Assembly: GCF_003334405.1 (NCBI RefSeq) | Contig: NZ_QOWM01000012.1 | Source: Escherichia coli | GTDB taxonomy: Bacteria > Pseudomonadota > Gammaproteobacteria > Enterobacterales > Enterobacteriaceae | Length of the DNA stretch: 64,000 nt | Reading direction: 5' to 3' (one strand) | Part shown: positions 1 to 15,986 of the stretch, in pieces | Layout: each line of letters begins with the position of its first letter | Position numbering within the stretch: the stretch's first letter is position 1 | Position numbers and translations under genes: made by a program | The notes under the pieces: model-generated | What the model was told of the DNA's origin: nothing | The model's database searches: none | The model's input: only the letters and a program-made list of their open reading frames with translations

Positions 1-2534
1 GTGTTTTTCGTCCCCAAATCCGTACTGGATGCGCTGGCGCTGTGGGTGTGCGATTTAATGCCGTCCTGTTCCTGAGACAATACGGCACGACCACTGGCGG
101 GTTTGCCCTTAATCGTCCAGCCACGCATATCAGGGATCACGCCTGACGGATAAGCGGCTGCAAGTTTCGGGTATGCAGATTTGTCAAAAGTCTGTCCCTG
201 CATCAGGGCATAGCCAGACGGAACGGTATCTGATGGCCACGGGATTGGTGCGCCAGGCGGATAAAACTGCTCTGATGGCGTATAGAGTGAATAAACTGTA
301 CCGTCCGTTAACCCTTCCGGCTTATTAGCAGAATATGCTGGTGACGTATGAATCGTCACGCTGGCATTACTGGTATAATCCCATTGAATATTTACACCAG
401 TCGCATAATTTCCGATTGCAACGTAAATATCGTAAGTATCACCAGATGTATTGACCCAGGCAAAATTTGTAAACCCTGTCGATGTGCGCTGCCATAAAGC
501 ACCAGTAATCCCCTTCGGATTACCATTACCTGCACGCAAAACAAGTTCAGATATACCTGCCTGTTGAGGTGACCCCACGTTAAATCCCGCGCCACCAATC
601 AACGTAATTGAAACAACAGAACTCGCCTGTGGCATGGTTACCGTTGCTAATTTGAACCAACCAGCACCACCGCTGAATGACATTGTTGTTGAGTTAAGCG
701 TACCAATATCTTTCGGCGTCAGTGTTATATCCGCTGAAAGCGCCTTACCATTCACCTTACGGGCAGAAGGTACCCGACCATTCGCATTATCATTAGCTGC
801 TTTCACTGCTTTCGGTGTCGCGGCAAGCGTTTCAGATGCGCTGTTGGTTGCACTACTGAGCTGGACAATTCCTTTTTGTGCTGTCGTAGCGTCCTGAGCA
901 GTATATTTCCCGTTAGCAAGGTCATAGGCTGCCTTTACCGACTTTGGCGTTGCCGCCAGCATTTCAGATGTGCTGTTGGTCGCGTTGCTAAGCTGAACTA
1001 TCCCTTTCTGTGCTGTCGTTGCATCCTGTGCGGTGTATTTCCCGTTAGCCAGCTCATACGCGGCCTTAACGGCTTTTGGCGTTGCCGCCAGTGACTCGGA
1101 AGTGCTGTTAGTCGCACTGCTGAGCTGTACTATCCCCTTTTTCGTCGTGCTCGCATCCTCAAGCGCCACGGCGGATGCAATATCCTCTGCCCGTTTTGCC
1201 GCTGTCTCGGCGCGCGTTGCCGCGGATTCCGCCGTACTTTTGCTCTGAGCTGCCGCCGTCGCACTGCCAGCTGCCTCTGTCGCCTTCGTGGATGCCGTCG
1301 TGGCGCTGCCCTTTGCTGCTGACGCCTGTCTGGTCGCCTCATCTTTTGAAGCAGACGCAGATGATGCCGATGACGCCGCCGAACTGGCGGACGATGCGGC
1401 AGCCGTTTTTGAGGATTCTGCGCTGGTTTCCGACGCTTTCGCGTTCGTCTCGGATGTCTTCGCTGCGGAAGCAGACCTCGCTGCTGCGCTGGCCTGTACA
1501 GCGGCTTCGCCAGCCTTCGTTGTGGCTGTTGAAGCAGACGATGCAGCACTTTCTGCCGATTTTCCGGCGGCGGTGGCACTGGCTGAGGCCTGCCCGGCAC
1601 TTGTTGACGCGGCACTGGCAGATAATGCAGCCGCTGTTTTTGAGCCTGCCGCAGCTGAGGCGCTCTGTCCCGCTGCCGTTTCAGAAGACCTGGCGTTCGT
1701 CTCGGACGTTTTTGCCGCCTTCGCAGAATTTGCTGCCGCCGTTGCCGAGGAAGCTGCGCTGCTGGCGCTCGAGGCTGCGTTCGTTTCTGATGATTTTGCC
1801 GCCTCTTTTGAAGCCGACGCATCCCGTGCTGAAGTGGCTGCTTCTGACGCTTTCGTGGTCGCGGTGGATGCAGAAGTGGCTGCTGATTGTTGTGACGCTG
1901 CCGCATTCGTTTCTGACGTTTTCGCCGCACCGGCACTGGTAGCCGCCGCGCTTTTTGAGGACTCTGCAGCGGCAGCACTTTTTGATGCCTCAGAGGCTTT
2001 TGCTGATGCCGTTCCTGCGCTGGAAAAAGCCTCCTGAGCCGACGTCGCGGCCTGTCCGGCTGACGTGCTGGCTGCACGTGCTGAGCCTGCAGCATCAGTC
2101 GCATGGGTTGCCGCCTCACTGGCAGATGTGCTGGCATCACTGGCTGACTTCTTCGCGGCTGCCGTGTTCTGTGCCACTGCGGACGCGTTACGCACCACCT
2201 CTTCCACCATCAGTTCAAAACGTCGCAATGCCTCCGGACGGGCATCATCCTCCGTCATGGCACCGAGAAAATCATTCAGCGTACCGGGTTGAGAATCTTC
2301 ATACACGGTGATGGTCCCGGCATGTGACGGCGGGAATCCTTCCACCAACAGAATAACGCTGTACTGACCGTACTCAACGTCCATGCTGTAACGCCCGGCT
2401 TCATCCGGATTTTCTGAGGCCAGCGTGTTCACCACCACCGTGGTGCTGTTACGTTTTGCTTTCAGCTGGATTGTGCAGTTCTGTACCGGTTTTCCTGTGC
2501 CGTCTTTCAGTACACCTGAAATCTTTACTGCCAT
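1..2534 (-). CDS. stf: Side tail fiber protein Stf, partial (C-terminal end lies beyond the window start)
   Basis: Minus-strand ATG at 2534 gives [30 protein letters not shown]..., matching the lambda Stf N-terminus; a fragment at 1141-1200 translates [19 protein letters not shown] in the same frame; my manual scan of that frame from 1140 to 1 found no stop. Absent from the ORF track because it has no stop inside the window. Confidence 0.8.
780..1150. repeat. About 2.5 tandem copies of a ~132-bp unit inside stf (44-aa peptide repeat)
   Basis: Recurring blocks gctgttggt...tttcccgttagc...ggcgttgccgccag at ~132-bp spacing. Confidence 0.6.
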
Positions 2535-2545
2535 ATTCACCCCAC

Positions 2546-2576
2546 AAAAAAGCCCGCCTGAACCGGCGGGCTGTCA
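2546..2576 (-). terminator. Putative rho-independent terminator between lom and stf
   Basis: Minus-strand hairpin gcccgccggttcaggcgggc followed by a T-run. Confidence 0.5.
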
Positions 2577-2598
2577 TAACACTGTGTTACCTGGCTAA

Positions 2599-3198
2599 TC
2601 AGAATTTATAACCGACACCCATGATGAAACCGTCAGTGCGCCAGTCGCCACTGCCGGAGCCTTCATAAGCAATATCAATGGCCACGGATTCGGTCGGGTT
2701 AAACTGCACGCCAGCTCCCCACGCCAGAGACGTGTTGCTGTGGCGACCGTCATCACTTCCGGTCAGCACGTCGTGCGTTTTCCCCTTGTTGTCAGTTACG
2801 CGGAGATAATCCCCGGAGAAAGTCGACACACGGCTGTAAGCCACACCCGCCATCGCATACGCGCTGAACCATTCATTCACGCGCACAGACGGCCCCGCCA
2901 TCACGCTGAACCAGCGGTTACGAACGGAATCTTCATGCCAGCGGGTATCGCTGTAATGGGTCAGCTGGCGATTCTTGTCTCCTGCATAGCTGAATGACGT
3001 CACCATCCCCAGTGTGTCCGTAAACTCATAACGGTATTTCACGTTAATCCCGTTCAGATCATCGCTGCCGGGAACGTTCGTCGAGGCATGAAGATACCCC
3101 GCGCTCAGCGTGGACTGATGTTCAGATGCCCATGCAGGCGCACCGGATACGGCCAGACAAATGGCTGCGGAAAAAATGGCGGCATAAAGTTTACGCAT
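2599..3198 (-). CDS. lom: Lom/Ail-family outer membrane beta-barrel protein
   Basis: 199-aa ORF with signal peptide MRKLYAAIFSAAICLAVSGAPAWA and C-terminal GVGYKF; sits between J and stf as in lambda. Confidence 0.85.
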   Translation of the reverse strand: MRKLYAAIFSAAICLAVSGAPAWASEHQSTLSAGYLHASTNVPGSDDLNGINVKYRYEFTDTLGMVTSFSYAGDKNRQLTHYSDTRWHEDSVRNRWFSVMAGPSVRVNEWFSAYAMAGVAYSRVSTFSGDYLRVTDNKGKTHDVLTGSDDGRHSNTSLAWGAGVQFNPTESVAIDIAYEGSGSGDWRTDGFIMGVGYKF

Positions 3199-3220
3199 AA
3201 TTACCTCTCGCTTTTCTGCA

Positions 3221-3250
3221 ATAAAAAAGGCACCATTTCTGGTGCCCTTA
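3221..3250 (-). terminator. Putative rho-independent terminator downstream of the J remnant
   Basis: Minus-strand hairpin ggcaccagaaatggtgcc followed by ttttttatt. Confidence 0.45.
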
Positions 3251-3267
3251 TATGGGTTATAACAATT

Positions 3268-5294
3268 TCAACGAATACTGATGCCGGAAGCGGCTTTTTT
3301 GGTCACAATCACCGTACAGTCGGTGATATTACCTGCCCGCTGATTGCCTTTATGGAAAACCTTAAACTCCAGAGTGACGCTTCCCCTGCCACTCGGCATA
3401 TCAATAACCGCACTGTAGCTACCGGGAATGGCCCCTTTAGTTTCTCTGGATGCGATTAATACACCGTTTTTGCGAACTTCAAAACCATAACCCGTGTATC
3501 TTGTACCTCCCGGGTTATTACCACTTCCCGGATCGCTATACGCTATTCCGTTAAAGATAATGGGCGGAATAATAATCTGACGGTCAAAGTTATGATCATC
3601 GCTGATGGTGACTGTAACCGTCCCGTTTGGTGTTTCCGTGTTACCCCACGTACCAGCCTGTTTCGGAAATGATTTGGATACAGCTTTAACGAAGTCACCT
3701 CTGACCTGAGTCGCCTCCAGCATGCCCTTAATCGTACAGTTTTCATTTACCGTGACATTGTTGAGCGTCCCGGCGTTCGCATTCACACTGCCACTGATAT
3801 CCGCATTTTTAGCGGTCAGCTTTCCGTCCGGTGTCAGGGAAAATGCCGGTGGATTTCCACCGCTGGTAATGGTGGGGGCCGTCAGGCGTTTCAGGAACAC
3901 GTCGTTCATGAATATCTGATCGCCCTGACCAACAAACATCGGTTTTGTGTTGCCATTCGCAGGATTAACCATCGCAATCCTGTCCGCCGCCAGCAGCACC
4001 TGACTCTGCATGCCGTCAGGGGTGTTCTCAATACCGGCACCAATACCCGCGATATAAAGGCGTCCGTCCTGCATCTGCTGCAGCTTCACAGCCCACATGC
4101 TGTTCAGGTTATTATTTGTATCAACCTGAACCTTCTGTATCTGCTGAATTGCCGCACTCTGGTCTTCCAGTTTCTTATTGACGGTCTGCGTGATTTCATT
4201 GCTGACATCCGTAATGGACGTCCTGATTTCAGCCAGGTCAGGCGCAAGCTGACCGTTATCAATCTGCGTCCACAGCTCCTGAGCCAGATGGGTTTTCCCT
4301 ATCTCGCCTTTGAAAAAATCCAGATAGCCGGATGCATCATCACTCGGCCGACCAACAGCCTCCACGAATGCCGATTTGCCAACGGTGTTCACACTGCGAA
4401 CGTAAAAATAATAATCATGGCCCGGTTTGATATTGATACTGGCGGCTATCCAGTACAGCGCCGTACCAAGATAACGCGCGCTGGTTTCAACCTGCCTGAT
4501 ATCAGCAATCCGTTTTTCCGAGAACCAGAACTCAAACTGTACCGTCGGATCATAAACCGCAAGATGCGGCGTGGCGGTTATCTGAAAATAGCCCGGCGTC
4601 AGCTCAATCCGCGACGGCGCTGCCGGTGCGGCAACAGGCGCTGGCGCAACGTCGGCAGCTTCAGCCCCCATACGCTGTATTCAGCAACGCCGTCAGGAAC
4701 ACGGCTCACTTTCACCTTCACGCCGCCGGTGACGGACTGAACCTCCACGCTGACCGGACTCCCCTGCCCGTCAACCAGGCTTATCAGCGTGGTACCGGAG
4801 GATGGCAGCGTGATTTCACGGTCGAGCGTCAGCGTCCGGGTCTGGCTGTTTACCGCCAGCACGCGCCCGCCGGTGCGGATACCGGCATAGTCATCATCGC
4901 AGATTTCAATGACATCGCCCGGTACATGGCGAAGCCCTTCGGCACCCACGCTGAAGTCCACGGTCTGCGTTTCCAGCAGTTCTGTTTTAATCAGCCACAG
5001 CCCGGCGCGGTGTGCCTGCCCCCGGCTGGTACAGCCAAAGGCATCCATCTTCGTGACGTTACGACCGTAACGGGCAATGGCCTGCGTGTCCTCCACAAGC
5101 TCTGTTGCCGTCTCCCAGCCGTTGTCCGGGTCAATCCAGTTCACCTCAACGGCATTATGGCGGTCCTTCAGGGCGCTGAAGCTGTAGCGGAACGGCGCGT
5201 CATCATCCGGCATCACCACATTACTGCGGTTATAGGTCCACACCTTATCCCGAAGAAAACACCACCAGAGAGACCGCAGGTCCGGACAGAGCAT
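3268..5294 (-). pseudogene. J: Tail tip host-specificity protein J remnant: N-terminally truncated, with an internal out-of-frame deletion near 4640-4680
   Basis: ORF 4599..5294 matches the central region of lambda J (FRYSFSALKDRHNAVEVNWIDP...[14 protein letters not shown]); ORF 3268..4671 matches the J C-terminus ([36 protein letters not shown]...); the two frames overlap at 4599-4671. Confidence 0.8.
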
Positions 5295-5413
5295 TCAGCT
5301 CTGCCAGTGTTTCTCCCGGGATCACAGTCATATCGACATCATTAATCGAGGCTGTCTTTCCCATCTTTCTGACCGTGATAGCATCCATACGCGCTGCCAG
5401 CCGGGAAAAGGGA

Positions 5414-5782
5414 TCAGACATTGAGTTTTACCGGCACTTCTTCTGCACTGGTTCCGGCATCTGCCCAGACAACCCCGACCAGCGGATCAGAGCCGCTGTT
5501 AGTCAGCTGAATTTTTCCGGACTTCAGATAAACCTTCTTACCCGTTTTCATGTCATCCGTTTTCAGCTTAGGCAGCATAAACACACCTTCGGTCATGCCG
5601 TCGCCTGTTTCACCCTGTGGAATATCGGTCAGCGCCACCGCAAAAACATCGCCCACCTGCACCAGATCTCCGCTGCTGATGGCTGCACTGGCAACAATCG
5701 CCACCGTTTTTCCTTCTTCTACAAAATTCTTTGCCATAACTGTCTCCGCACAGCCCCGTTCAGGGGCTGATTTCAGGTACAA
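5414..5782 (-). CDS. Small head decoration/cement-like protein (DUF2190-like)
   Basis: 122-aa ORF MAKNFVEEGKTVAIVASAAISSGDLVQVGD..., directly downstream of the capsid gene. Confidence 0.6.
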   Translation of the reverse strand: MYLKSAPERGCAETVMAKNFVEEGKTVAIVASAAISSGDLVQVGDVFAVALTDIPQGETGDGMTEGVFMLPKLKTDDMKTGKKVYLKSGKIQLTNSGSDPLVGVVWADAGTSAEEVPVKLNV

Positions 5783-5823
5783 AAAAAGCCCTTACGGGCC
5801 ATCAGAGTTGTTGTCTGCGACGT

Positions 5824-7782
5824 TTACGCCGTACATTTCACCAGACCGCGGTGATCAACTGGCGCGACACCGGCGTCAATACGCACTTTCGTTGTCACGC
5901 CATCCACACTGAAGCCCTCCATCTGATCAATATATGGCGTATCCACACCGTTGAGATAAGCCACTTCAATCGTATCGGAGCCTTTTGACGCAGCCAGGTA
6001 GAAGGTGGTCTGGCTGTTATCATCAAGACGAGGCTCTGCAATAACGGTCGCAAAATCTTTCACCGGGTTAATAATACCGGCGTTAATGTCAGCCCCCTTG
6101 ACACTTGAGGAGCGAATGACCTGGTTAGCAACAGACTCCATCGCCGTCGGTACCAGTACGAACGCAGGACGAATATTCAGATGACGCTCCCCCTCTTTCT
6201 GAACGCGCATCAACTGGCGGGCTTTATCCAGCGATGCCACGTCCATTGCAGCGCTCTCCAGTACGTTTGCATGTTTCGCTTTATCGAACAGACTTACATT
6301 ATCTGTGGAGATTTTCGGGTTAGACGTCAGAATGGCATAAACCAGATCGGCAATAGTGGATTTCGCCGCACGGCCCAGTTTCATCGGGACATCGGTCAGC
6401 ATATTCAGATCATCATTGATAATGGCCTGACGGGTGATACTGAACAGCTCGCCATAGGTCGCCAGTGCAATAGTGGCCTGTTTATCTCCGGTGGTGACGT
6501 ATTTATATTCCGCCCCTTCACGCACCTGACGCAGAGCACTGAAGCCCCCCATACCCACACGATGGGCAATTTTAAAATCAGACAACTGACCTTTCCGCGT
6601 CCACTGTTCATAGGTTTCAGGGGCATCTTCCCAGCCCTGCAGAATGGCTTTGTTCGCAACATCCAGCAGAATATTACCGAAGTCAGACGTACTGTGTGTG
6701 AACGCCGCACCGACCATCTGCATCGGGTTATAACCGGAAACCCCAATACCCCGTTCAGTTAGTGACATACGGGCATATTCACGCAGGGTCATCCCGTTGT
6801 AGACATTATCACGTTCGGTTTTTTCAAATCCGGCACGCGCCATCAGCGCCTGGCGAATCCCGTCCCCCACAAAATTACCGTTACCGGCATAAATATGAGC
6901 CGGGGTATTTTTATTGGATGGCGTGGACTCGCGCCCCATCTCGTTCAACAGCTTTTCACGGGCCTGCTCCAGCGAACATTCAGGATCGGCAAGACACTGA
7001 GCCTGCAGCGTCTGATAACGCCCGCCAAACATGGCAAACAGATCATTAATACCGTTTACACGCGCTTTTTGCTCTGCCAGTACCTGCGCACGGATGCTGT
7101 TTTCATCCACCACGGGTGCTGCTGCCTGCACTGGCGTCCGGGAGGCTTCAGATTCATTATCCTGTACGCGTGGAGCACTGTTGCGTGGCGGAGTAATCAT
7201 GTTTCGAATGGATTCCGGCATCTTTTTAAATTCCTCTGTACGTTTTGACTGAATACATGCCATTGCCTTAACGGCTGGCGTTACCTGATCAGCAAATCCA
7301 TGTGCCAGACATTCGGCACCGGACATCCAGGTCTCATCCGCCAGCATGGCAGCAATTTCATCGGTGGTTTTCCCGGTTTTCTGTGCATAAGCGGGTAACA
7401 GAACCGCCTCAACTTTATCGAGCAGGTCGGCATAGGTGCGCATGTCCTCCGCATCACCGCCCGTAAAGCCAAATGGTTTATGAATCATCATGAAGGTGTT
7501 TTCCGGCATAATGACCGGGTTTCCTACCATCGCAATGACCGACGCCATTGACGCCGCCACACCGTCGACATAAACGGTAATGGACGCACCATGTGTTTTC
7601 AGCGCATTAAAAATGGCGATGCCTTCAAAGACATCGCCACCCGGTGAATTAATATGGAGATTAATGTGGGTGATATCGCCCAGTGCATTCAGATCACTGA
7701 TAAACTGCTTCGCTGTAACACCCCAGAAACCAATCTCGTCATAAATATAAATATCCGCGTCACTCTGGTGACCAGCCTGCAT
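5824..7782 (-). CDS. ClpP-like prohead protease fused to an HK97-fold major capsid protein
   Basis: ORF track gives 5824..8043 (739 aa); the first ~87 codons overlap the terminase ORF, so the likely start is the ATG at 7782 (MQAGHQSDADIYIYDEIGFW). ClpP-like block NSPGGDVFEGIAIFNALK...ASMASVIAMVG, then a capsid-like C-terminal half. Confidence 0.8.
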   Translation of the reverse strand: MQAGHQSDADIYIYDEIGFWGVTAKQFISDLNALGDITHINLHINSPGGDVFEGIAIFNALKTHGASITVYVDGVAASMASVIAMVGNPVIMPENTFMMIHKPFGFTGGDAEDMRTYADLLDKVEAVLLPAYAQKTGKTTDEIAAMLADETWMSGAECLAHGFADQVTPAVKAMACIQSKRTEEFKKMPESIRNMITPPRNSAPRVQDNESEASRTPVQAAAPVVDENSIRAQVLAEQKARVNGINDLFAMFGGRYQTLQAQCLADPECSLEQAREKLLNEMGRESTPSNKNTPAHIYAGNGNFVGDGIRQALMARAGFEKTERDNVYNGMTLREYARMSLTERGIGVSGYNPMQMVGAAFTHSTSDFGNILLDVANKAILQGWEDAPETYEQWTRKGQLSDFKIAHRVGMGGFSALRQVREGAEYKYVTTGDKQATIALATYGELFSITRQAIINDDLNMLTDVPMKLGRAAKSTIADLVYAILTSNPKISTDNVSLFDKAKHANVLESAAMDVASLDKARQLMRVQKEGERHLNIRPAFVLVPTAMESVANQVIRSSSVKGADINAGIINPVKDFATVIAEPRLDDNSQTTFYLAASKGSDTIEVAYLNGVDTPYIDQMEGFSVDGVTTKVRIDAGVAPVDHRGLVKCTA

Positions 7783-7795
7783 CCTGAACCAGGAA

Positions 7796-9592
7796 TTATT
7801 CTTCGGACTGGTCGTCGGTGTGCTGCGGCTCCTGTCGTTTCGTTGCGGCACTACTGCCTCCTTTATCACTGGCCGGATCGGTATCAAATACCAGATCCAG
7901 CTTGCGGTTTTCATCAATTTCGGCCTTGCGCCGACGTTTGACATCATCCGGATTACGACCACCAGCACGTACCCAGTCTGATTCTGTCGCCGCTCCACCA
8001 CGAATCTGGATTTTCCAGGCCTCAGCCTCCTTAACAGGGTCAATCCACGGCATCACTGGTCCGGAATACACCGCGGTATACAGTGAAGAACGGTCAAGAT
8101 CGCGGGGTAGCCTGATAACACCGGATGCCACAGCCTGTTTCAGCCACGCACGATACATCGGGCGGGTGACGGCACCAATAAACCAGTCCTGCAGGATCAG
8201 GTAGCTGGCCGGATCAATTCGCTGGCTCTCCCCGTCGCTGTCACCGCGCAATGACTGCGTGATGTTGTAACGATCAATAATCCAGCGTTCGCCACGGCTG
8301 CCATAGCCCGTTACCTGAACCACAAAACGGCGATGACGTCCCGCCTGCACATCCACTGTCGCCACAAGGAAATTAACGCCATCCGGCACACTGCGGGAAG
8401 GAACTGGCTCTGCCCGCTGCTCAAGCAGTTCACTTTTTCGTTGCTCCATGCTGGCGCGGGGAAGATAAGGTAATCCCCAGTCGGTATTGATAACCGTCTT
8501 GAGTGTTTCTTCACTTCCGGTTGTCTCGTATTCCTGTTCTGCAGTAAGCAGTTTGTAAACGAGTTGCGAGAGTGTCTGGTAAGCAGCTGCCGGACCCTCC
8601 ATCCAGAATGACGCAATACGTGAGCGTCGGGGATCACCATAACGACTGCCATCCGCATTGATGGATTCACCATCCCGCAACCAGACCCCACGTCCGTTCA
8701 GCTCACGTTTGTGTTCAGGCATAATCCGTCCTGAACAGGAAGGACACTGAATATAAGCCGCCTCACTTGCCAGCACGGGATCGGCAATATCACGGAAACC
8801 AGCAACCACATCGCCGCAGGGCTGAAAATACTCACCACAGTGTGGACAGGGCCAGTACCAGCGACGGCGATCGCCACGGTTATAGAGCGACAGTATCCCC
8901 GTGGTTGGTGGAGCCTCATGCGGTGAAGTCCGTCGCCATTTCACATCCTTCACATCCCTGCCGGGGGAACTCTCCACAAGCGTCATACCACTGGACATAA
9001 ATGTTGTGGTACGTTTTGAGGCAAGAGAGAAAGCATCCCCCTCGCCATCAATATCTTCCGGAAAACGGTCATAATCCGTCAGCGCGACGCATTTATAATC
9101 TGATGAGGACATGATATTGACTGACGGCCAGCCGATTTTCAGGTAGTTACCAGCAAGGAATGTTCTGTCATAAACGTTGTTGTCATTTTTGTTCGGACTC
9201 AGGCGACTGACCACTTCCGGGCTGACGCGAAACGTTCTGGCGAGTCGTTTTTTGGAGTGTTCGCGGGCTTTTTCCTCCGTCATCTGAATGATCAGCATAT
9301 CAGCAGGATCGCAAATCACGTTGTAAATCACCCAGCCGTCAATCAGGCCGATAGTCTTGCCGGTTCGTGCCGGGCCAACAAATATCACTGCGTCGTATTC
9401 ACGCGAGGCCAGGCAGTTCATCGGCTCAATAACATACGGTGCCACCAGCGGATCCCACGGGACTGAGTTCCCTGCCCCCATGGGCACCCGCATATACTGA
9501 GCAACGGCATCAGCAACCCGCATTCGTCTCGGTGCGCGAAGGATATAACCTGAATCGGTTCGTGCTGCCTTTGCGGTTTCCTGATTCAGCAT
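7796..9592 (-). CDS. Terminase large subunit, lambda GpA family (the C-terminal ~90 aa may be a fused remnant, see findings)
   Basis: 598-aa ORF with Walker A VGPARTGKT and zinc-finger-like WPCPHCGEYF...CPSCSG, typical of GpA-type terminases. Confidence 0.85.
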   Translation of the reverse strand: MLNQETAKAARTDSGYILRAPRRMRVADAVAQYMRVPMGAGNSVPWDPLVAPYVIEPMNCLASREYDAVIFVGPARTGKTIGLIDGWVIYNVICDPADMLIIQMTEEKAREHSKKRLARTFRVSPEVVSRLSPNKNDNNVYDRTFLAGNYLKIGWPSVNIMSSSDYKCVALTDYDRFPEDIDGEGDAFSLASKRTTTFMSSGMTLVESSPGRDVKDVKWRRTSPHEAPPTTGILSLYNRGDRRRWYWPCPHCGEYFQPCGDVVAGFRDIADPVLASEAAYIQCPSCSGRIMPEHKRELNGRGVWLRDGESINADGSRYGDPRRSRIASFWMEGPAAAYQTLSQLVYKLLTAEQEYETTGSEETLKTVINTDWGLPYLPRASMEQRKSELLEQRAEPVPSRSVPDGVNFLVATVDVQAGRHRRFVVQVTGYGSRGERWIIDRYNITQSLRGDSDGESQRIDPASYLILQDWFIGAVTRPMYRAWLKQAVASGVIRLPRDLDRSSLYTAVYSGPVMPWIDPVKEAEAWKIQIRGGAATESDWVRAGGRNPDDVKRRRKAEIDENRKLDLVFDTDPASDKGGSSAATKRQEPQHTDDQSEE

Positions 9593-10086
9593 TACTCCTC
9601 CTGCTGTAATTCCTCCTCATCATCCGCACCTGCTTCAGTCACCCGCAGGGCTATCTGATCGCGCAGATCATCAATAATGGACTGAACACGGCTCACAGCG
9701 GCAGGCTGCAGACCGCAGTCACGTTCAAGAATATCCGGTAATGTCTCCAGCACCTGCACGACCGCTTTTGCCCAGATGGCAAACTCCCGTCTGACATCAC
9801 TGGCCGGAATGAGTTGTGCCGTTTCCTGTTCGAACTTAAGACGCTCACGTTCAGACTGATACCAAGCTTTGCGCTCATGCGCGTCCATTTCGCCTTCTGC
9901 AACCGGCGGTGGTAATGCCAGAAATGCCGACACAATATCAACCACCCGATAAAGCTTGAGGTTGCTTTCATGCCCCCCTGCAACGGGTAGATTTTGCAGC
10001 CTTGCCGCAGCAGTCTGGCGATGTACACCTGACAGTGCCGCCAGTTGACTGATATTCAGCGTCAGATTTTTCAACTCTCGATCCAT
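9592..10086 (-). CDS. Terminase small subunit (Nu1-like)
   Basis: 164-aa ORF directly upstream of and overlapping the terminase large subunit start; N-terminal HTH-like LTLNISQLAALSGVHRQTAAARL; acidic C-terminus. Confidence 0.75.
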   Translation of the reverse strand: MDRELKNLTLNISQLAALSGVHRQTAAARLQNLPVAGGHESNLKLYRVVDIVSAFLALPPPVAEGEMDAHERKAWYQSERERLKFEQETAQLIPASDVRREFAIWAKAVVQVLETLPDILERDCGLQPAAVSRVQSIIDDLRDQIALRVTEAGADDEEELQQEE

Positions 10087-10249
10087 ACCCGCTCCAGAAT
10101 GTTTTAAACATGCATCTTGCGAACAACTTTAGGCAAACGGTGTTAGCGATGAACAAAAAACAATCAAAATCGACACCGTAAAAATAAAAACACTGTAATA
10201 TCAATATATTACAGTAGTGGTGATGACGAATAAAATTTCAAAAACTAGC

Positions 10250-10290
10250 CTTTTTCCGCGACGCTCCCGCCCCGTGGCAGGCCACCCCAC
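10250..10290. other. Candidate cos site
   Basis: Minus-strand CACGGGGCGGGAGCGTCGCGG followed downstream by TTCGTCAT, resembling lambda cosN GGGGCGGCGACCTCGCGG...CTTCGTCAT; lies just upstream of the Nu1-like gene. Confidence 0.4.
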
Positions 10291-10539
10291 CGGAAGGACC
10301 CGCCAAAATGAGAGTGATTATCACCATTGCTGATGAATAAATTGATGAAAATCATTGAAACGCCTTTCAGCAAGATAACGGCGACGGTCGTTGTTGAACT
10401 CCGTAGCTCTGCTACTAAGGTTAAAAGCATGGCCATCTTTTGCCACCGGCAAATCTTCAATGGATTTCCCCTGCCGGTTTTTTATTCCTCACATTATCGC
10501 AGCCCCTCAGTGAAGGGCTGCTGTAATGCCTGCTCTTAC

Positions 10540-10923: not shown

Positions 10924-11391
10924 CTACTTAATGCGCTGGGTGCGGATATATTCCTGCGCCCCTTCCAGTTGCTTCTGCATCGTCATCAACCGTTCTCTGA
11001 GGGTGAAATAATCCCGTTCAGCGGTGTCTGCCAGTCGGGGGCTGGTTGCATTATCCATGCTGGTGGGTCCGGTGGCTTCACGCACGGCTGCGGAGCAACT
11101 GGCATTGACCCGCAGGCGCTTACGACCAGCGGCAACATCAGCGCGCAGAGTTTCATTTTCAGTTTTCGCATCGGCTAACTCCTTCGTGTATTTTGCATCG
11201 ATCGCAGCAACATCACGCTGACGCTGCTGCATGTCAGCGATGGTGGCGGTCGCCTGCTTCAGCTCACTGACTTTTTTATCACGCTGTTCTTTGTAGGCGA
11301 TGGCGTTATCACGGTAATGATTGACCGCCCACGACAGGCAGACGATGATGCAGATAACCAGAGCGGAGATAATCGCGGTTACTCTGCTCAT
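10924..11391 (-). CDS. Rz: Spanin inner-membrane subunit Rz
   Basis: Strongly similar to lambda Rz ([31 protein letters not shown]...); ORF track start is 11403, likely start is MSRV at ~11391. Confidence 0.85.
10986..11171 (-). CDS. Rz1: Spanin outer-membrane lipoprotein Rz1, embedded in Rz in another frame
   Basis: 61-aa ORF with lipobox LVVSAC and proline-rich [29 protein letters not shown], as in lambda Rz1. Confidence 0.8.
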
Positions 11392-11885
11392 TGTTGCCCC
11401 CACAAACAGACTTCACGCTCAATCTCACGACGAGTCATCAGGCCTTTCCATTGCTTACCGCCAGCGTATGTCCAGCGACGTAGCTGGTCACATGCGCCTT
11501 TGATATCGCCCTGGTTGATTTTGCGAAGAAGCGTCGATGTTCTGAAATTGCCAGCACCCACGTTGTAGACGAACGAGTAAAGAGCGCCGCGCGTTGTTTC
11601 CGGTATATCGACTTTGATGTACGGGTTAATTTGTCTGGCGACCGTGGCAAGGTCTTTATTCAGGAGGGCTTTGCATTCTGCTTCGGTATACGTTTTACCT
11701 AGCATGATGTCTTTTCCGGTGTGTCCGTGACATACAGTCCATACGCCAACGATATCTTTGTATGGTATGTAGCTGACACCTTCCAGGCCATCGTCACCAC
11801 TCGGACCAGTGATGAGCACAGACGCTATGGCAACAGCCCCACCACCAATAGCAGCAGCAACAGCCTTGCGTAATGATGGCGACAT
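11388..11885 (-). CDS. R: SAR endolysin (phage lysozyme, phage 21 R-like)
   Basis: 165-aa ORF with an N-terminal weakly hydrophobic signal-anchor-release segment [18 protein letters not shown], then a lysozyme-like domain. Confidence 0.9.
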
Positions 11886-12100
11886 TATTCACCTCTCGCA
11901 GCCTTACGCTTATCTTCTTTAATCTTGAAATAAAGGTTTGTCAGATACGTCAGCAAGCCAAATACCAGACTACCTAGCACACCTATTGCCGCCCACTGTG
12001 AGGGCGTGACTTTATCGAGCAACTGTAAAAACCAGTACCCGGCACTACCTGCTGAGGTGCCATAGGCGACACCCGTTGTTAACTTATCCATGGATTTCAT
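11885..12100 (-). CDS. S: Pinholin (phage 21 S-like)
   Basis: 71-aa [29 protein letters not shown]... with the dual-start MKSM motif and two transmembrane segments, paired with the SAR endolysin. Confidence 0.9.
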
Positions 12101-12166: not shown

Positions 12167-13219
12167 TTATTTCCCCACCAGCTCGTTTATCTCTTTCACT
12201 GTCTGGTTAAACCGCTCTGACTCAAGCTCAACACCTAAGGCCCGACGCCCCAGCGCCATTGCTGCTTTTATTGTGGAACCGGATCCCATAAAAAAATCAG
12301 CAACCAGATCACCAGGTCGACTACTGGCATTGATTATTTGCCGGAGCATATCCGCAGGTTTCTCACACGGATGTTTACCCGGGTAGAACTGAACGGGTTT
12401 ATGCATCCAGACATCGGTATAAGGCACGGAGACTGATACGGAGAAATAGCGCCGGAGAGATTTAAACTCATCCAGCAATTCAGAATATTTGCGATTCAGT
12501 GAATCATAAGATGCCACCAGCTGGTGGTGTGGTTGTTCCAGTTGTTGTTCCTGAAACTTCTCTGCCGCTATACGGGAAAACAGTGCCTGTAACTTCCGAT
12601 AGTCAGCCTCATTCGGCAACTGCCACTGACTGGCACCAAACCAGTGGGAAACCATATTTTTCTTACCTGTGGCTTCGGCAATTTGTTTTGCCGTTATACC
12701 CAGTTCGGCACGAGCATCCCTGAAATACGATATCAGCGGTGCCATTATGTGCTGTTTGAGTTCCCTTTCTTTTGCCGCATAGCCGTCACTTTTGCCGCGA
12801 TATGGCCCCTGGTAATGTTCAGCAAACAGAACGCGCTCTGTGGCAGGAAAATATGCGCGCAGACTTTCTTTATTACACCCATTCCAACGTCCGGACGGCT
12901 TCGCCCAGATGATATGGTTAAGCACGTTGAAACGTTCACGCATCATGATCTCAATATCAGATGCCAGGCGATGCCCACAGAACAGGTAAAGGCTTCCGGC
13001 AGGTTTCAACACCCGCCAGAACTGGGCCAGACAGTGGTCCAGCCACTTAAGGTAATCTTCGTCCCCTTTCCACTGATTGTCCCAACCGTTGGGTTTCACC
13101 TTGAAGTAAGGCGGATCGGTAACAATCAGGTCAATGGAATCATCAGGCAGGGACTGAATAAAATGCAGGCAATCAGCGTTGATTAAATCAACACTGTTTA
13201 TTTTTACAGTATTTTTCAT
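12167..13219 (-). CDS. Orphan DNA methyltransferase (N6-adenine/N4-cytosine beta class)
   Basis: 350-aa ORF with motif IV DPPY near the N-terminus (LIVTDPPYF) and motif I FFMGSGST near the C-terminus. Confidence 0.85.
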   Translation of the reverse strand: MKNTVKINSVDLINADCLHFIQSLPDDSIDLIVTDPPYFKVKPNGWDNQWKGDEDYLKWLDHCLAQFWRVLKPAGSLYLFCGHRLASDIEIMMRERFNVLNHIIWAKPSGRWNGCNKESLRAYFPATERVLFAEHYQGPYRGKSDGYAAKERELKQHIMAPLISYFRDARAELGITAKQIAEATGKKNMVSHWFGASQWQLPNEADYRKLQALFSRIAAEKFQEQQLEQPHHQLVASYDSLNRKYSELLDEFKSLRRYFSVSVSVPYTDVWMHKPVQFYPGKHPCEKPADMLRQIINASSRPGDLVADFFMGSGSTIKAAMALGRRALGVELESERFNQTVKEINELVGK

Positions 13220-13368: not shown

Positions 13369-13587
13369 TCATTGCTGAAGGCGTCTGTAACAGCCGAACT
13401 GGTAATCTGCCAGCCCCGCCATAACCAACTGGGTCAGTATTAACTGACAGCGTTCGCGTGAAAGATATGTGTTTTGTGCAATCTCCCCGACTGTTGCCGG
13501 TTCGATGCTTAATTCATTAAAAACAACTTTCGCCGTTTCTGTCATATCTTGCTGTTTTAGCATGTCTTTTTTCCTTCTGGTTAACAT
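13369..13587 (-). CDS. Small hypothetical protein, possible winged-helix DNA binder
   Basis: 72-aa ORF; segment TVGEIAQNTYLSRERCQLILTQLVMAGL looks HTH-like. Confidence 0.4.
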   Translation of the reverse strand: MLTRRKKDMLKQQDMTETAKVVFNELSIEPATVGEIAQNTYLSRERCQLILTQLVMAGLADYQFGCYRRLQQ

Positions 13588-13662
13588 GACATACCAATAA
13601 CTCTTGTCTAAAAAGCCAGCAAGATAAAAAGTCAGTATTCACGACCACCAGCGTGTTTACCG

Positions 13663-13697
13663 TACTGCACCAGGTTTACAGGTACAAAAAAACCCGC
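13663..13697. terminator. Strong intrinsic terminator hairpin, candidate tR'-type element on the minus strand
   Basis: aaaaaaacccgctcgacggcgggttt; the minus-strand reading has the stem followed by seven T. Confidence 0.45.
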
Positions 13698-13975
13698 TCG
13701 ACGGCGGGTTTAAGTTGTGTGGCGAAGTAACCACTCTTGAGAGCATATCTGATTATTTACGATTGTAAATAATATATTCCCCCCAATAATTAGATTGAGA
13801 AAACATTACCATATTGATAATAAGGCAATTGACATAATTATAAAAATCATTCTTGGTTGATTTTAAAACAACAAATGCACGATATTTACCCAATCATTGA
13901 TGAATACATCTCTAAATGTTATAAATTTATTGTTTTTCTAAAGATAACTCTCATTCATATCAGGAAAGATAAAAA

Positions 13976-15427
13976 ATGTCAGACATAAAAAATATACTAA
14001 AATGCATGTACTTTGATAAAAATAGATACTCAAACTTTGGCTCCGTAATTAAAAGTCTAGAGATAAATGGATTTCGAGGAATAAAAAAACTAACATTAAA
14101 TATAAATTTTCCGGTAACTGCAATATCAGGGCTAAACGGCGCTGGGAAAAGCACTCTTGGGCAGTTAGCAATATGCGCATATAAAAAACCAGTTACAGCC
14201 CGTGAATATAAGAGATTATATATTAAAGATTTTTTCCCTGTATCTAAAGCCGATCCAGCCCCTTTCGATAATGACGCCAGTGTCATTTATAAATATGAAA
14301 CAAATGATTCAACGAAAACACAAGATGTGACTGTCACTCGCATAAAGTCTTCTTGGTCTGGATATAAAAGACAACCAGAAAGACACTGTTTTTACATTGG
14401 TTTTACTGTCTATATTCCAAAAGTAGAACGTAGAGATATAAGTGTTTATGGCGGTAAAGACTTTGATTTAACAGAGAGAAGAAGCGTCGACCATTCAGTA
14501 ATATTGAAGATGGCAAAAATAATAGGTCATCCATATGATGATATCGCATTCCAAGGAATTTCTCATAGAGCACGTCGTTCAGAAATTGGTATTGTTGAAA
14601 GACTTGGGTATTCTTATTCTGAAAATAACATGGGGTTTGGCGAAGGAAGAGTTCTTTATACGGTTGATATGCTTGAAACAGCTCCAGAGCAAAGTCTTTT
14701 CGTACTAGAAGAACCAGAAACATCTCTTCATGAAAGCGCACAGTATGAATTTGCAAAATATTTAATGGAAGTATGTCAACGTAGAAAACATCAAATAATA
14801 TTATCAACACACTCAAGTGTGATATTAAATGCTTTACCTCCTGATGCACGAAAATTACTTATTAGAGATCAGACTGGTGTCTATATCAAAGATGGAATTT
14901 CAACAACTCATGTGAGATCAATACTGTCTGATGGGCAGTTTAAAGGGCTGCATATTTGCGTAGAAGACCAGTTTGCAAAAGTTTTACTTAGTGAAGTAAT
15001 TAGAGCAAAGCGGAGAGACATTCTTAAATCCATTCAAATCACTGATATTGGAGATAAAGATGCAGTCCGACAAGCAGTCGAGGTATTCAAGAAAGCAGGC
15101 CTTAATGTTATTGCCGTAAGAGATGCAGATGTTGGAGAAAACATTAAAGATGATTTATTTTCTTTCCCTGGCAATAGGCCACCAGAAGTAGAAGTATTTC
15201 AACATGAGGAAGTAAAAAAATTCCTCTACAAGGAGTATCATATTGATTTTGATTGGTTAATAAAAAAGGAAGGGATTAGTGATCATCACAATTACACTCA
15301 AGCAATTGCTAAAGAAGCAGAATGTGAGGAGGAAGTAATTAGAACTTTAGCAATAAAAAAATATATTGAAATTATTGATGAGAAATTTGACCCACTTATT
15401 ACAAATATAGTAAGCAAAATAAAATAA
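13976..15427 (+). CDS. OLD-family-like ABC ATPase with C-terminal TOPRIM-like nuclease motifs; candidate single-gene anti-phage defence moron
   Basis: 483-aa ORF on the opposite strand to the phage operons, in an AT-rich island; Walker A GLNGAGKST, Walker B/D-loop LFVLEEPETSLH, H-loop LSTHSS, then ICVEDQ and IAVRDADVG (Toprim-like E and DxD); SD aggaaag upstream. Confidence 0.8.
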   Translation: MSDIKNILKCMYFDKNRYSNFGSVIKSLEINGFRGIKKLTLNINFPVTAISGLNGAGKSTLGQLAICAYKKPVTAREYKRLYIKDFFPVSKADPAPFDNDASVIYKYETNDSTKTQDVTVTRIKSSWSGYKRQPERHCFYIGFTVYIPKVERRDISVYGGKDFDLTERRSVDHSVILKMAKIIGHPYDDIAFQGISHRARRSEIGIVERLGYSYSENNMGFGEGRVLYTVDMLETAPEQSLFVLEEPETSLHESAQYEFAKYLMEVCQRRKHQIILSTHSSVILNALPPDARKLLIRDQTGVYIKDGISTTHVRSILSDGQFKGLHICVEDQFAKVLLSEVIRAKRRDILKSIQITDIGDKDAVRQAVEVFKKAGLNVIAVRDADVGENIKDDLFSFPGNRPPEVEVFQHEEVKKFLYKEYHIDFDWLIKKEGISDHHNYTQAIAKEAECEEEVIRTLAIKKYIEIIDEKFDPLITNIVSKIK

Positions 15428-15599
15428 CAAACCAGCAGGCGCTAATTACTAAAAACCTTGTACATTAGCGCCACCCTCAAATAAATTAGTGGTTATTAAA
15501 TCCCCACAAAAACATTAATATAAAGCACAAACAGTCCACCCTCCTTAATTTCATGCTAACAATACAAATTAAAAATCCAGATACTCATAAAATATCTTT

Positions 15600-15986
15600 C
15601 TAGATATTTGAGTCCATTTCCAATTCTATTTCTAACATTATCAACATACCTTCAATGATGCCTTCTGCCTTTTGCAATAAGCGCCCAACCCAGCAATCAG
15701 AACGCCCATGTTTACGGGCAAGCGCCATAAACGTCATACCACCTACATAATAATCTACTAATAAATCGTGCAAATCGCTGTTGTTCTTTTTCAGACGGGC
15801 CATGCACCCGCAAATGATCATCGCGTCATCGTCACAACATTGCGGACGGGATTTTACTTTTGAAGGAAGTAATCCCTTAAAACCGGCAGCAATGGACGAC
15901 CAGGTCACATCCTCATGATTATTAGCCGCCCATGCCCCCCAACGTTCAAGAACCATTTGAATATCACGCATCAACTTCCTCCACAA
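15600..15986 (-). CDS. Q: Late-gene antitermination protein Q
   Basis: 128-aa ORF with Cys-rich zinc-binding block [14 protein letters not shown]; sits upstream of the lysis and packaging genes. Confidence 0.8.

Follow-up and report, generated by a model that had tools for sequence, protein, structure and literature searches.

A HEC-04/IbfA-type ABC ATPase-Toprim gene as probable anti-phage cargo beside Q in an Escherichia coli lambdoid prophage

Introduction

Several anti-phage proteins couple an ABC ATPase to a Toprim nuclease. The Old protein of phage P2 stays an inactive tetramer until DNA structures at the phage origin activate it; after ATP hydrolysis it cuts the anticodon stems of tRNAs. 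PARIS couples its Toprim effector, AriB, to the ATPase AriA and is neutralised by a phage-encoded tRNA. AriB cleaves host tRNA-Lys after its release from AriA. GajA, the nuclease of Gabija, nicks DNA and is inhibited by ATP (PMC10568477). Whether one ATPase-Toprim protein is enough for broad defence, and what such a protein would sense and cut, are questions raised in a review of OLD-type nucleases from 2023 (PMC10568477). Here we analyse a gene of this architecture in a stretch of 64,000 nucleotides (nt) of Escherichia coli DNA (contig NZ_QOWM01000012.1 of assembly GCF_003334405.1, the whole of which we call the window), where it lies beside the antiterminator gene Q of a lambdoid prophage, at 13976..15427 on the + strand.

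The closest described systems are HEC-04 and IbfA. HEC-04, listed in PADLOC as 'Hma-embedded candidate 04' and tested as WP_044502283.1 from E. coli MOD1-EC5853, is a single gene that protects E. coli from several coliphages, and its defence is lost with the Walker A substitution K62A or with the triple substitution E319A/D375A/D377A (Payne et al., bioRxiv 10.1101/2024.01.29.577857). A later paper summarises its range as T4 and T5, and not T7 or lambda; HEC-04 is also toxic upon over-induction. IbfA, an ATPase + TOPRIM protein of 518 amino acids (aa) from the IncI1 plasmids R64/pUA1135, is a reported HEC-04 homolog that causes abortive-type interference with a P22-like phage and acts on unrelated phages (PMC12111858, 2025). 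We consider it highly probable that the window gene acts alone in anti-phage defence, is of this HEC-04/IbfA type and is carried as a moron by the lambdoid prophage. Our analysis covers the integrity of the gene, its folds, the conservation of its catalytic residues, its family, its context and its mobility; defence itself, and the dependence of defence on Walker A and on the E/D/D residues, come from the literature on homologs.

Results and Discussion

An intact, AT-rich and mobile gene

The defence gene is an open reading frame (ORF) of 483 aa with an ATG start, which the Prokaryotic Genome Annotation Pipeline (PGAP) names 'ATP-dependent nuclease' (WP_032083250.1). Its guanine-cytosine (GC) content is 0.34, compared with ~0.5 in the flanks, and across 13600-15600 as a whole GC is 0.29-0.37, with ~0.45-0.57 on either side. 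A Shine-Dalgarno sequence, AGGAAAG, stands 5' of the ATG at 13962-13968 (+ strand), and a consensus scan gives a candidate promoter of its own, TTGATA-16-AATTAT, at 13814..13841 on the same strand (9/12 matches). The encoded protein contains the motifs GLNGAGKST (residues 52-60), LFVLEEPETSLH (241-252), LSTHSS (276-281), ICVEDQ (327-332) and IAVRDADVG (379-387). The original prediction, made from the letters of the window, had described a 483-aa ORF opposite in strand to the flanking phage genes, with these motifs, its own Shine-Dalgarno sequence and AT-rich flanks, and in each of these respects our results agree with it.

A word-index search returned 736 homologs, which among the matches listed are mostly 482-484 aa long, 57-78% identical to the window protein and spread across Gammaproteobacteria, including Klebsiella, Vibrio, Pseudomonas, Aeromonas, Shewanella, Methylomonas, Acidithiobacillus and others. 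When 1.84 billion representatives of 50% identity clusters were searched exhaustively, 128 matched at E <=1e-30; these are distributed over Gammaproteobacteria, and nearly all are colinear with the window protein and 470-530 aa in length. In comparisons with orthologs from three genera, synonymous divergence (dS) is saturated, nonsynonymous divergence (dN) is 0.18-0.29 and the proteins are 64-75% identical. Owing to the saturation of dS a dN/dS ratio is not computable, so that selection is described here in qualitative terms only; the homolog set is far beyond chance, and the alignments clearly point to purifying selection on the gene.

The gene is identical, at 100% on the nucleotide level, in E. 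coli H8. The full locus is found in 11 of 5426 complete E. coli genomes, each time with an 'ATP-dependent nuclease' adjoining Q, and the 170 bp of flanking sequence at 13600-13770 are matched in 1243 of the 5426. Another copy, 78% identical, lies at the end of a different phage-like contig, and in all hosts compared (four genera) the gene is 10-17 GC points lower than its flanks. It is absent from the deposited phage genomes that we searched, and a literature search found no mention of WP_032083250. These observations confirm that the gene is a real and intact piece of AT-rich, mobile cargo.

Relationship to HEC-04 and IbfA

The best of the protein's 124 PADLOC matches is to the HEC-04 model PDLC04149 (E 3.9e-47, 159 bits), which aligns with residues 5-410 at a model coverage of 80% (profile positions 7-403 of 494). 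The tested HEC-04 protein itself, according to its authors' table, matches the model at 5.2e-53 with a coverage of 0.83. The runner-up is the ATPase-Toprim model of retron I-B (2.5e-22), and further matches, to AriA, NsnB, MAD3 and GajA, involve the ATPase only. PHROG 3940, a family of unassigned function, matches the protein over its full length (E 1.5e-77). When aligned directly with the tested HEC-04 protein, for which we used the first 399 residues as given in the authors' Table S2, the window protein is colinear over ~400 aa at 26% identity (E 5e-30), with K58 aligned to K62 and E330, D383 and D385 aligned to E319, D375 and D377.

Both proteins are thus single polypeptides of ~480-490 aa in which an ABC ATPase is followed by a Toprim domain, without a partner gene and with the K/E/D/D residues kept. 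They differ in that identity is low and the model match ends at residue 410, which indicates that the C-terminal helices have diverged. They differ also in setting: HEC-04 is chromosomal and embedded in an Hma system, whereas the window gene is prophage cargo between Q and a probable late promoter. IbfA resembles the window protein as an ATPase + TOPRIM protein encoded by a single gene on a mobile element, but it is a 518-aa protein of plasmids rather than a 483-aa protein of a prophage. Plasmid-borne relatives in our alignments are ~23% identical to the window protein and keep the same motifs, with 30 aa inserted behind DxD; one of them, a plasmid protein of 521 aa (L015), may be IbfA itself.

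From these alignments we place the window protein in the HEC-04/IbfA group as a divergent member, whose own clade appears tight and widespread. The kind of system is therefore already known and has been experimentally validated in homologs, and the novelty is modest, consisting of the divergent conserved clade, the finding that a lambdoid prophage carries it, and a better definition of the slot in which it sits. No new kind of system is revealed; what is added to the stand-alone ATPase-Toprim defence proteins is a well-conserved, widely distributed clade of candidate members that occurs as prophage and satellite cargo. The proposal in the original prediction that the gene may be a compact single-gene variant holds insofar as this is a single, stand-alone gene, but its class had already been described and tested as HEC-04 and IbfA.

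In the Acidiphilium multivorum plasmid NZ_CP041720.1 (129531-131973), a 49%-identical copy of the gene is present in two pieces, apparently split by an IS630-family transposase; the annotation there reads 'AAA family ATPase | IS630 family transposase'.

Domain architecture and catalytic residues

The N-terminal part of the protein is an ABC ATPase head of the SMC/Rad50 type (residues ~24-305; 14045..14890, + strand), in which we recognise Walker A at G52-T60 with K58, a signature-like G220-x-G222-E223, Walker B with its catalytic E245-E246, the LH pair at 251-252 and the H-loop at T278-H279. It is followed by a predicted Toprim core with the order beta-alpha-beta-alpha-beta-beta (residues ~324-400; 14945..15175, + strand), whose conserved acidic and nearby residues are E330, D331, G359-D360-K361, D383-x-D385 and F397-P398-G399. 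The remainder is a helical extension of the Toprim domain (residues ~401-483; 15176..15424, + strand), with helices predicted at 403-482 at a predicted local distance difference test score (pLDDT) >90 and with P403, E404, W427, D436-H437-H438 and E447 conserved. Structural alignments of the C-terminal domain to AriB and BpOLD cover 141-148 of its 168 modelled residues, so part of the helical region is common to these proteins.

Conservation follows the expected active sites across deep divergence. Among 27 representatives with 22-52% identity, K58, E246, H279, E330, D331, D383 and E404 are invariant, D385 and H438 are at least 90% conserved, and H252 is likewise conserved. The motifs are also kept in the alignment with HEC-04, the plasmid relative and a Paraburkholderia relative. 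The C-terminal 179 aa, searched alone, match the Toprim parts of two PADLOC models, HEC-04 (6.6e-7) and the retron type I-B 'ATPase-Toprim' (3.9e-5). From these PADLOC matches, the structural model and the conserved acidic residues, which are independent of one another, we regard it as established that the C-terminal domain is a Toprim nuclease of predicted OLD/AriB-type fold, with a residue pattern that fits a metal site. The original prediction was right about the ABC ATPase + Toprim architecture and about the residues it picked, E330 and D383/D385, which are those equivalent to E319/D375/D377 of HEC-04; for the C-terminal 190 aa, where a non-nuclease fold would have spoken against it, the predicted fold is Toprim.

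Other profile resources were less informative. No NCBIfam model matches at its curated cut-off, the best being short matches to ATPase motifs, and the C-terminal domain alone matches none. A comparison by hhalign of the family alignment with the stand-alone DUF4276 TOPRIM-like protein HEC-01B gave a probability of 1.5%, with a single-sequence template that carries too little signal. AlphaFold's model of the whole protein is of middling quality (mean pLDDT 68, predicted template modelling score 0.52) because the alignment is shallow.

A possible mode of action, weighed against OLD and PARIS

We read the protein as a defence system in one polypeptide, in which the ABC ATPase head would act as sensor and switch and the OLD/AriB-type Toprim domain as a metal-dependent nuclease effector. 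Judging from tested relatives, the lysogen would make the protein from the gene's own promoter and keep it in an inactive state, probably that of a homo-oligomer. A signal of phage infection, together with ATP binding or hydrolysis at the head, would then free the Toprim active site (E330, D383, D385 and probably E404), and the nuclease would cut an essential nucleic acid, which might be tRNA, as for P2 Old and AriB of PARIS, or DNA, as for GajA of Gabija. Phage production would be stopped, probably at the cost of the infected cell, as in abortive infection.

Several points weigh against this interpretation. The promoter from which the lysogen would express the gene is assigned from a weak consensus match within AT-rich DNA, where the scan found 13 matches with 9.3 expected by chance, and the function of 13814..13841 as the defence-gene promoter is accordingly no firmer than a suggestion from its sequence. 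The Toprim assignment is based on a structure prediction, though one of very high confidence, and on the two PADLOC models named above; sequence and profile searches of the PDB see the ATPase head only and no Toprim domain, and the match to the Pfam model OLD-like_TOPRIM, PF20469, falls below significance (E 0.59), although it covers residues 336-385 in the correct register. The same Pfam model reaches E 0.1 in 0 of 31 family members. The ATPase head is poorly modelled at residues 52-160, where inserts lie (pLDDT <50 at 52-96 and 121-160). The top structural neighbours of the Toprim domain mix tRNases and DNases, so that the substrate is not inferable from them, and with identities as low as those to HEC-04 and to the plasmid relatives, specificity, and even activity in E. 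coli, should not be assumed.

The question of tRNA or DNA leads to a related alternative, namely that the window protein belongs, in the strict sense, to the Class 1 OLD nucleases as a compact form, related at ortholog level to P2 Old or to the Thermus scotoductus enzyme TsOLD (PDB 6p74), and would be an autoinhibited oligomer that senses aberrant or replicating phage DNA and cuts tRNA anticodon stems. This differs from a HEC-04/IbfA-type assignment mainly in classification and in its commitment to a tRNA substrate. Class 1 is defined to include a stand-alone gene (PMC10568477), and the window gene shares with it this context, the ABC ATPase at the N-terminus and, at the C-terminus, a Toprim domain whose acidic metal site is conserved. 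Similarity to OLD proteins, however, does not reach beyond the stretches of Walker A and Walker B/D-loop in the ATPase, the PF20469 match is not significant, no Old model is among the best 25 of the 124 PADLOC matches, of which HEC-04 reaches 159 bits, and the window protein is ~45 aa shorter than TsOLD (483 aa compared with 528 aa). We therefore judge this alternative improbable. Membership of the OLD family becomes a matter of definition: architecture, stand-alone context and fold fit Class 1, but the Pfam model of the nuclease domain does not. The dimerisation domain that Class 1 proteins have inserted in the ATPase would fall within the poorly modelled residues 52-96 and 121-160.

A second alternative is a fused PARIS system, with AriA and AriB in one chain, for which anti-restriction proteins of phages, Ocr among them, would be the trigger and host tRNA the target of cleavage. 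The original prediction had drawn this likeness, and at the level of fold it stands. PARIS, however, consists of two proteins or of a fusion of ~700 aa, and we found no significant sequence match to AriB, a Toprim protein of the DUF4435 type, and a match to AriA only around Walker B. We give the fused PARIS explanation very little weight. The Class 2 OLD system Gabija (GajA/GajB) would be expected to show a GajB-like helicase, and none is encoded in the cassette that holds the gene, in its flanks or beside the homologs examined. For the Class 3 system, retron type I-B, no reverse transcriptase ORF is present in or next to the cassette or beside the homologs examined, in an analysis that included no dedicated search for a non-coding RNA.

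Whichever nucleic acid is cut, we suggest that the window protein is a convenient test case for the question of what a single ATPase-Toprim protein senses and cuts, as it is short, natural to E. coli and has a confidently modelled nuclease domain.

Genomic context of homologs

The neighbours of the gene differ entirely among E. coli, Klebsiella, Pseudomonas, Aeromonas and an uncultured phage contig, and none of them recurs. From this comparison across genera we conclude that the gene is stand-alone, with no conserved partner, consistent with the original prediction, which had noted neither a helicase nor a second partner gene nearby. The Klebsiella ortholog (L005-L007, 1-7452) lies at the edge of a satellite-like element with an AAA_25 primase-like gene and a capsid-protease fusion, and a HEPN gene is next to the ortholog. 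The Pseudomonas ortholog adjoins a weakly ThsB_TIR-like gene and an ORF of 146 aa (L008, 7703..8522), and both of these contexts resemble defence islands. An integrase island contains the Aeromonas ortholog, and 13 nt past the stop codon of the ortholog there begins a same-strand gene for a 268-aa DUF3427/HNH protein (L011/L012/L013, 7468..8274). This neighbour was not seen in the other genera examined; it could be either a partner particular to that lineage or a defence gene in its own right.

These contexts bear on the possibility that the gene has nothing to do with immunity, and serves instead in prophage maintenance or housekeeping, as an addiction-type toxin, or as an ATPase-nuclease of replication, recombination or repair akin to SbcCD or RecF. 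The ABC head does resemble those of SMC, Rad50 and RecF, the toxicity of over-expressed HEC-04 could be read in the same sense, and the authors of the IbfA study raise possible non-defence roles for chromosomal homologs (PMC12111858). A housekeeping role is hard to reconcile with a gene that lies on the strand opposite to every phage operon and that is found in so few E. coli genomes (11 of 5426) when its flanks are common. The slot is empty in phage SfV and holds unrelated cargo in sister phages, which implies that the phage does not need the gene. No Mre11/SbcD-like partner is present at the locus or beside the homologs examined, the neighbours in other genera are of defence type (HEPN, TIR-like), and the homolog HEC-04 protects against phages. 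We consequently hold a non-immunity function to be most unlikely.

The slot between Q and a probable late promoter

The defence gene fills a variable, AT-rich cargo cassette of ~1.84 kb (~13770..15612), bounded by an 82-bp promoter/terminator module on one side and by the 3' end of Q on the other. These boundaries were taken from blastn: on the left, homology to the sister phages PhiR40_1, cdtI and SfV ends at 13769, 13738 and 13710, respectively, and on the right it begins again at 15613. The cassette contains no further ORF of at least 60 aa besides shadow ORFs inside the defence gene. Q (15600..15986, - strand; PGAP 'antiterminator Q family protein') is of the quuD type, 86.7% identical to quuD of DLP12, and is convergent with the defence gene.

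A scan and folding calculations resolve the 82-bp module (13688..13769, - strand) into a promoter-like TTTACA-16-TATGCT (13769..13742) and a strong intrinsic terminator (13711..13690; -22.6 kcal/mol, z = -3.0), the latter annotated as a terminator in SfV. The module recurs at 86.6% identity in the cryptic prophage DLP12 of E. coli K-12 (L017, 6196-6277), between nmpC and essD and again with a quuD-type Q. As the same module and the same Q type occur whatever the cargo, the module travels with this type of Q, and its sequence and co-occurrence suggest that it is probably the Q-dependent late promoter and terminator (pR'/tR'). If so, the late operon would not include the defence gene, which would point away from the late promoter and towards Q.

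The stx genes of Shiga toxin phages lie downstream of pR'. The comparison with such a moron slot made in the original prediction is thus apt in that this is a cargo slot, but loose in that the gene is upstream of the probable late promoter module, a position of the nmpC/lc type. In DLP12 the cargo occupies the same slot in the same orientation: it is opposite in strand and is flanked by a quuD-type Q and by the 82-bp module, which lies upstream of the lysis genes; the likeness is limited to the slot, as the DLP12 cargo is a porin gene, nmpC, and not a nuclease. In SfV, Q is followed by ~100 nt and then by the annotated terminator. PhiR40_1 carries an opposite-strand gene for a predicted lipoprotein of 148 aa with the signal …LLSATIISGC… (L002, 3545..3991), and cdtI an opposite-strand gene for a 313-aa protein followed by one for a multi-pass membrane protein of 147 aa (L003, 3553..4941). 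Five states of the slot were therefore seen: empty, porin, lipoprotein, two-gene cassette and nuclease. PADLOC scans gave no match for the PhiR40_1 protein, for either cdtI protein or for the 72-aa product of a neighbouring window ORF; the PhiR40_1 and cdtI cargo could be uncharacterised exclusion or defence genes. A literature search found nothing specific on a defence hotspot in the Q slot. The five states mark the Q-to-late-promoter slot of quuD-type lambdoid prophages as a cargo hotspot, which is useful for mining prophage-borne immunity genes.

The stop codons of the defence gene and Q flank an inverted repeat, GGCGCTAAT(N17)ATTAGCGCC, at 15438..15472, with a perfect 9-bp stem and a loop of 17 nt. 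Its + strand RNA has a folding energy of -17.1 kcal/mol (z = -3.1). The - strand has a U-rich run behind the stem, but its fold reaches a z of only -0.64. It is possibly a bidirectional terminator or an insulator.

This arrangement allows for a more specific proposal, in which the placement between Q and the late promoter is itself regulatory and the 483-aa clade has a trigger or substrate unlike those of HEC-04, IbfA, Old and PARIS. The gene would be freely expressed in the lysogen, lying tail-to-tail with Q with only the 35-bp inverted repeat between them. On induction, read-through of the early operon past Q would run antisense over the nuclease gene and silence it, thereby sparing the phage's own replication. 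Were this true, the Q-to-pR' slot of quuD-type lambdoid phages would be a dedicated 'lysogen-only' site for toxic immunity cargo. We regard this proposal, taken as a whole, as rather unlikely.

Neighbouring genes and the state of the prophage

The flanking phage genes all lie on the - strand, opposite to the defence gene. Beyond the 82-bp module are the 72-aa ORF (13369..13587), a gene for a DNA methyltransferase of 350 aa (12167..13219), and then the lysis genes for holin (11885..12100), lysozyme (11388..11885) and Rz (10924..11403). The slot between Q and the lysis genes described in the original prediction is accordingly correct on the side of Q, but the gene does not abut the lysis cassette, as the 72-aa ORF and the methyltransferase intervene. 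We considered the methyltransferase as a restriction-modification-like partner of the nuclease and rejected it, because it occupies the same place in SfV, PhiR40_1 and cdtI, where the slot is empty or filled with other cargo.

The surrounding prophage (window 1-10300) is a deleted remnant, in which the defence gene is intact nonetheless. The remnant stretch has no contiguous match in any complete E. coli genome. In this part of it, which includes the ORFs 5824..8043, 3268..5294 and 2599..3198, the capsid-protease gene is directly followed by fragments of the tail-tip gene J and by lom, the genes for tail tube and tape measure being gone. In the ORF at 7796..9592 the large subunit of terminase (residues 1-454) is fused in frame to the C-terminus of the portal protein (464-597), with ~2 kb missing relative to E. 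coli H8.

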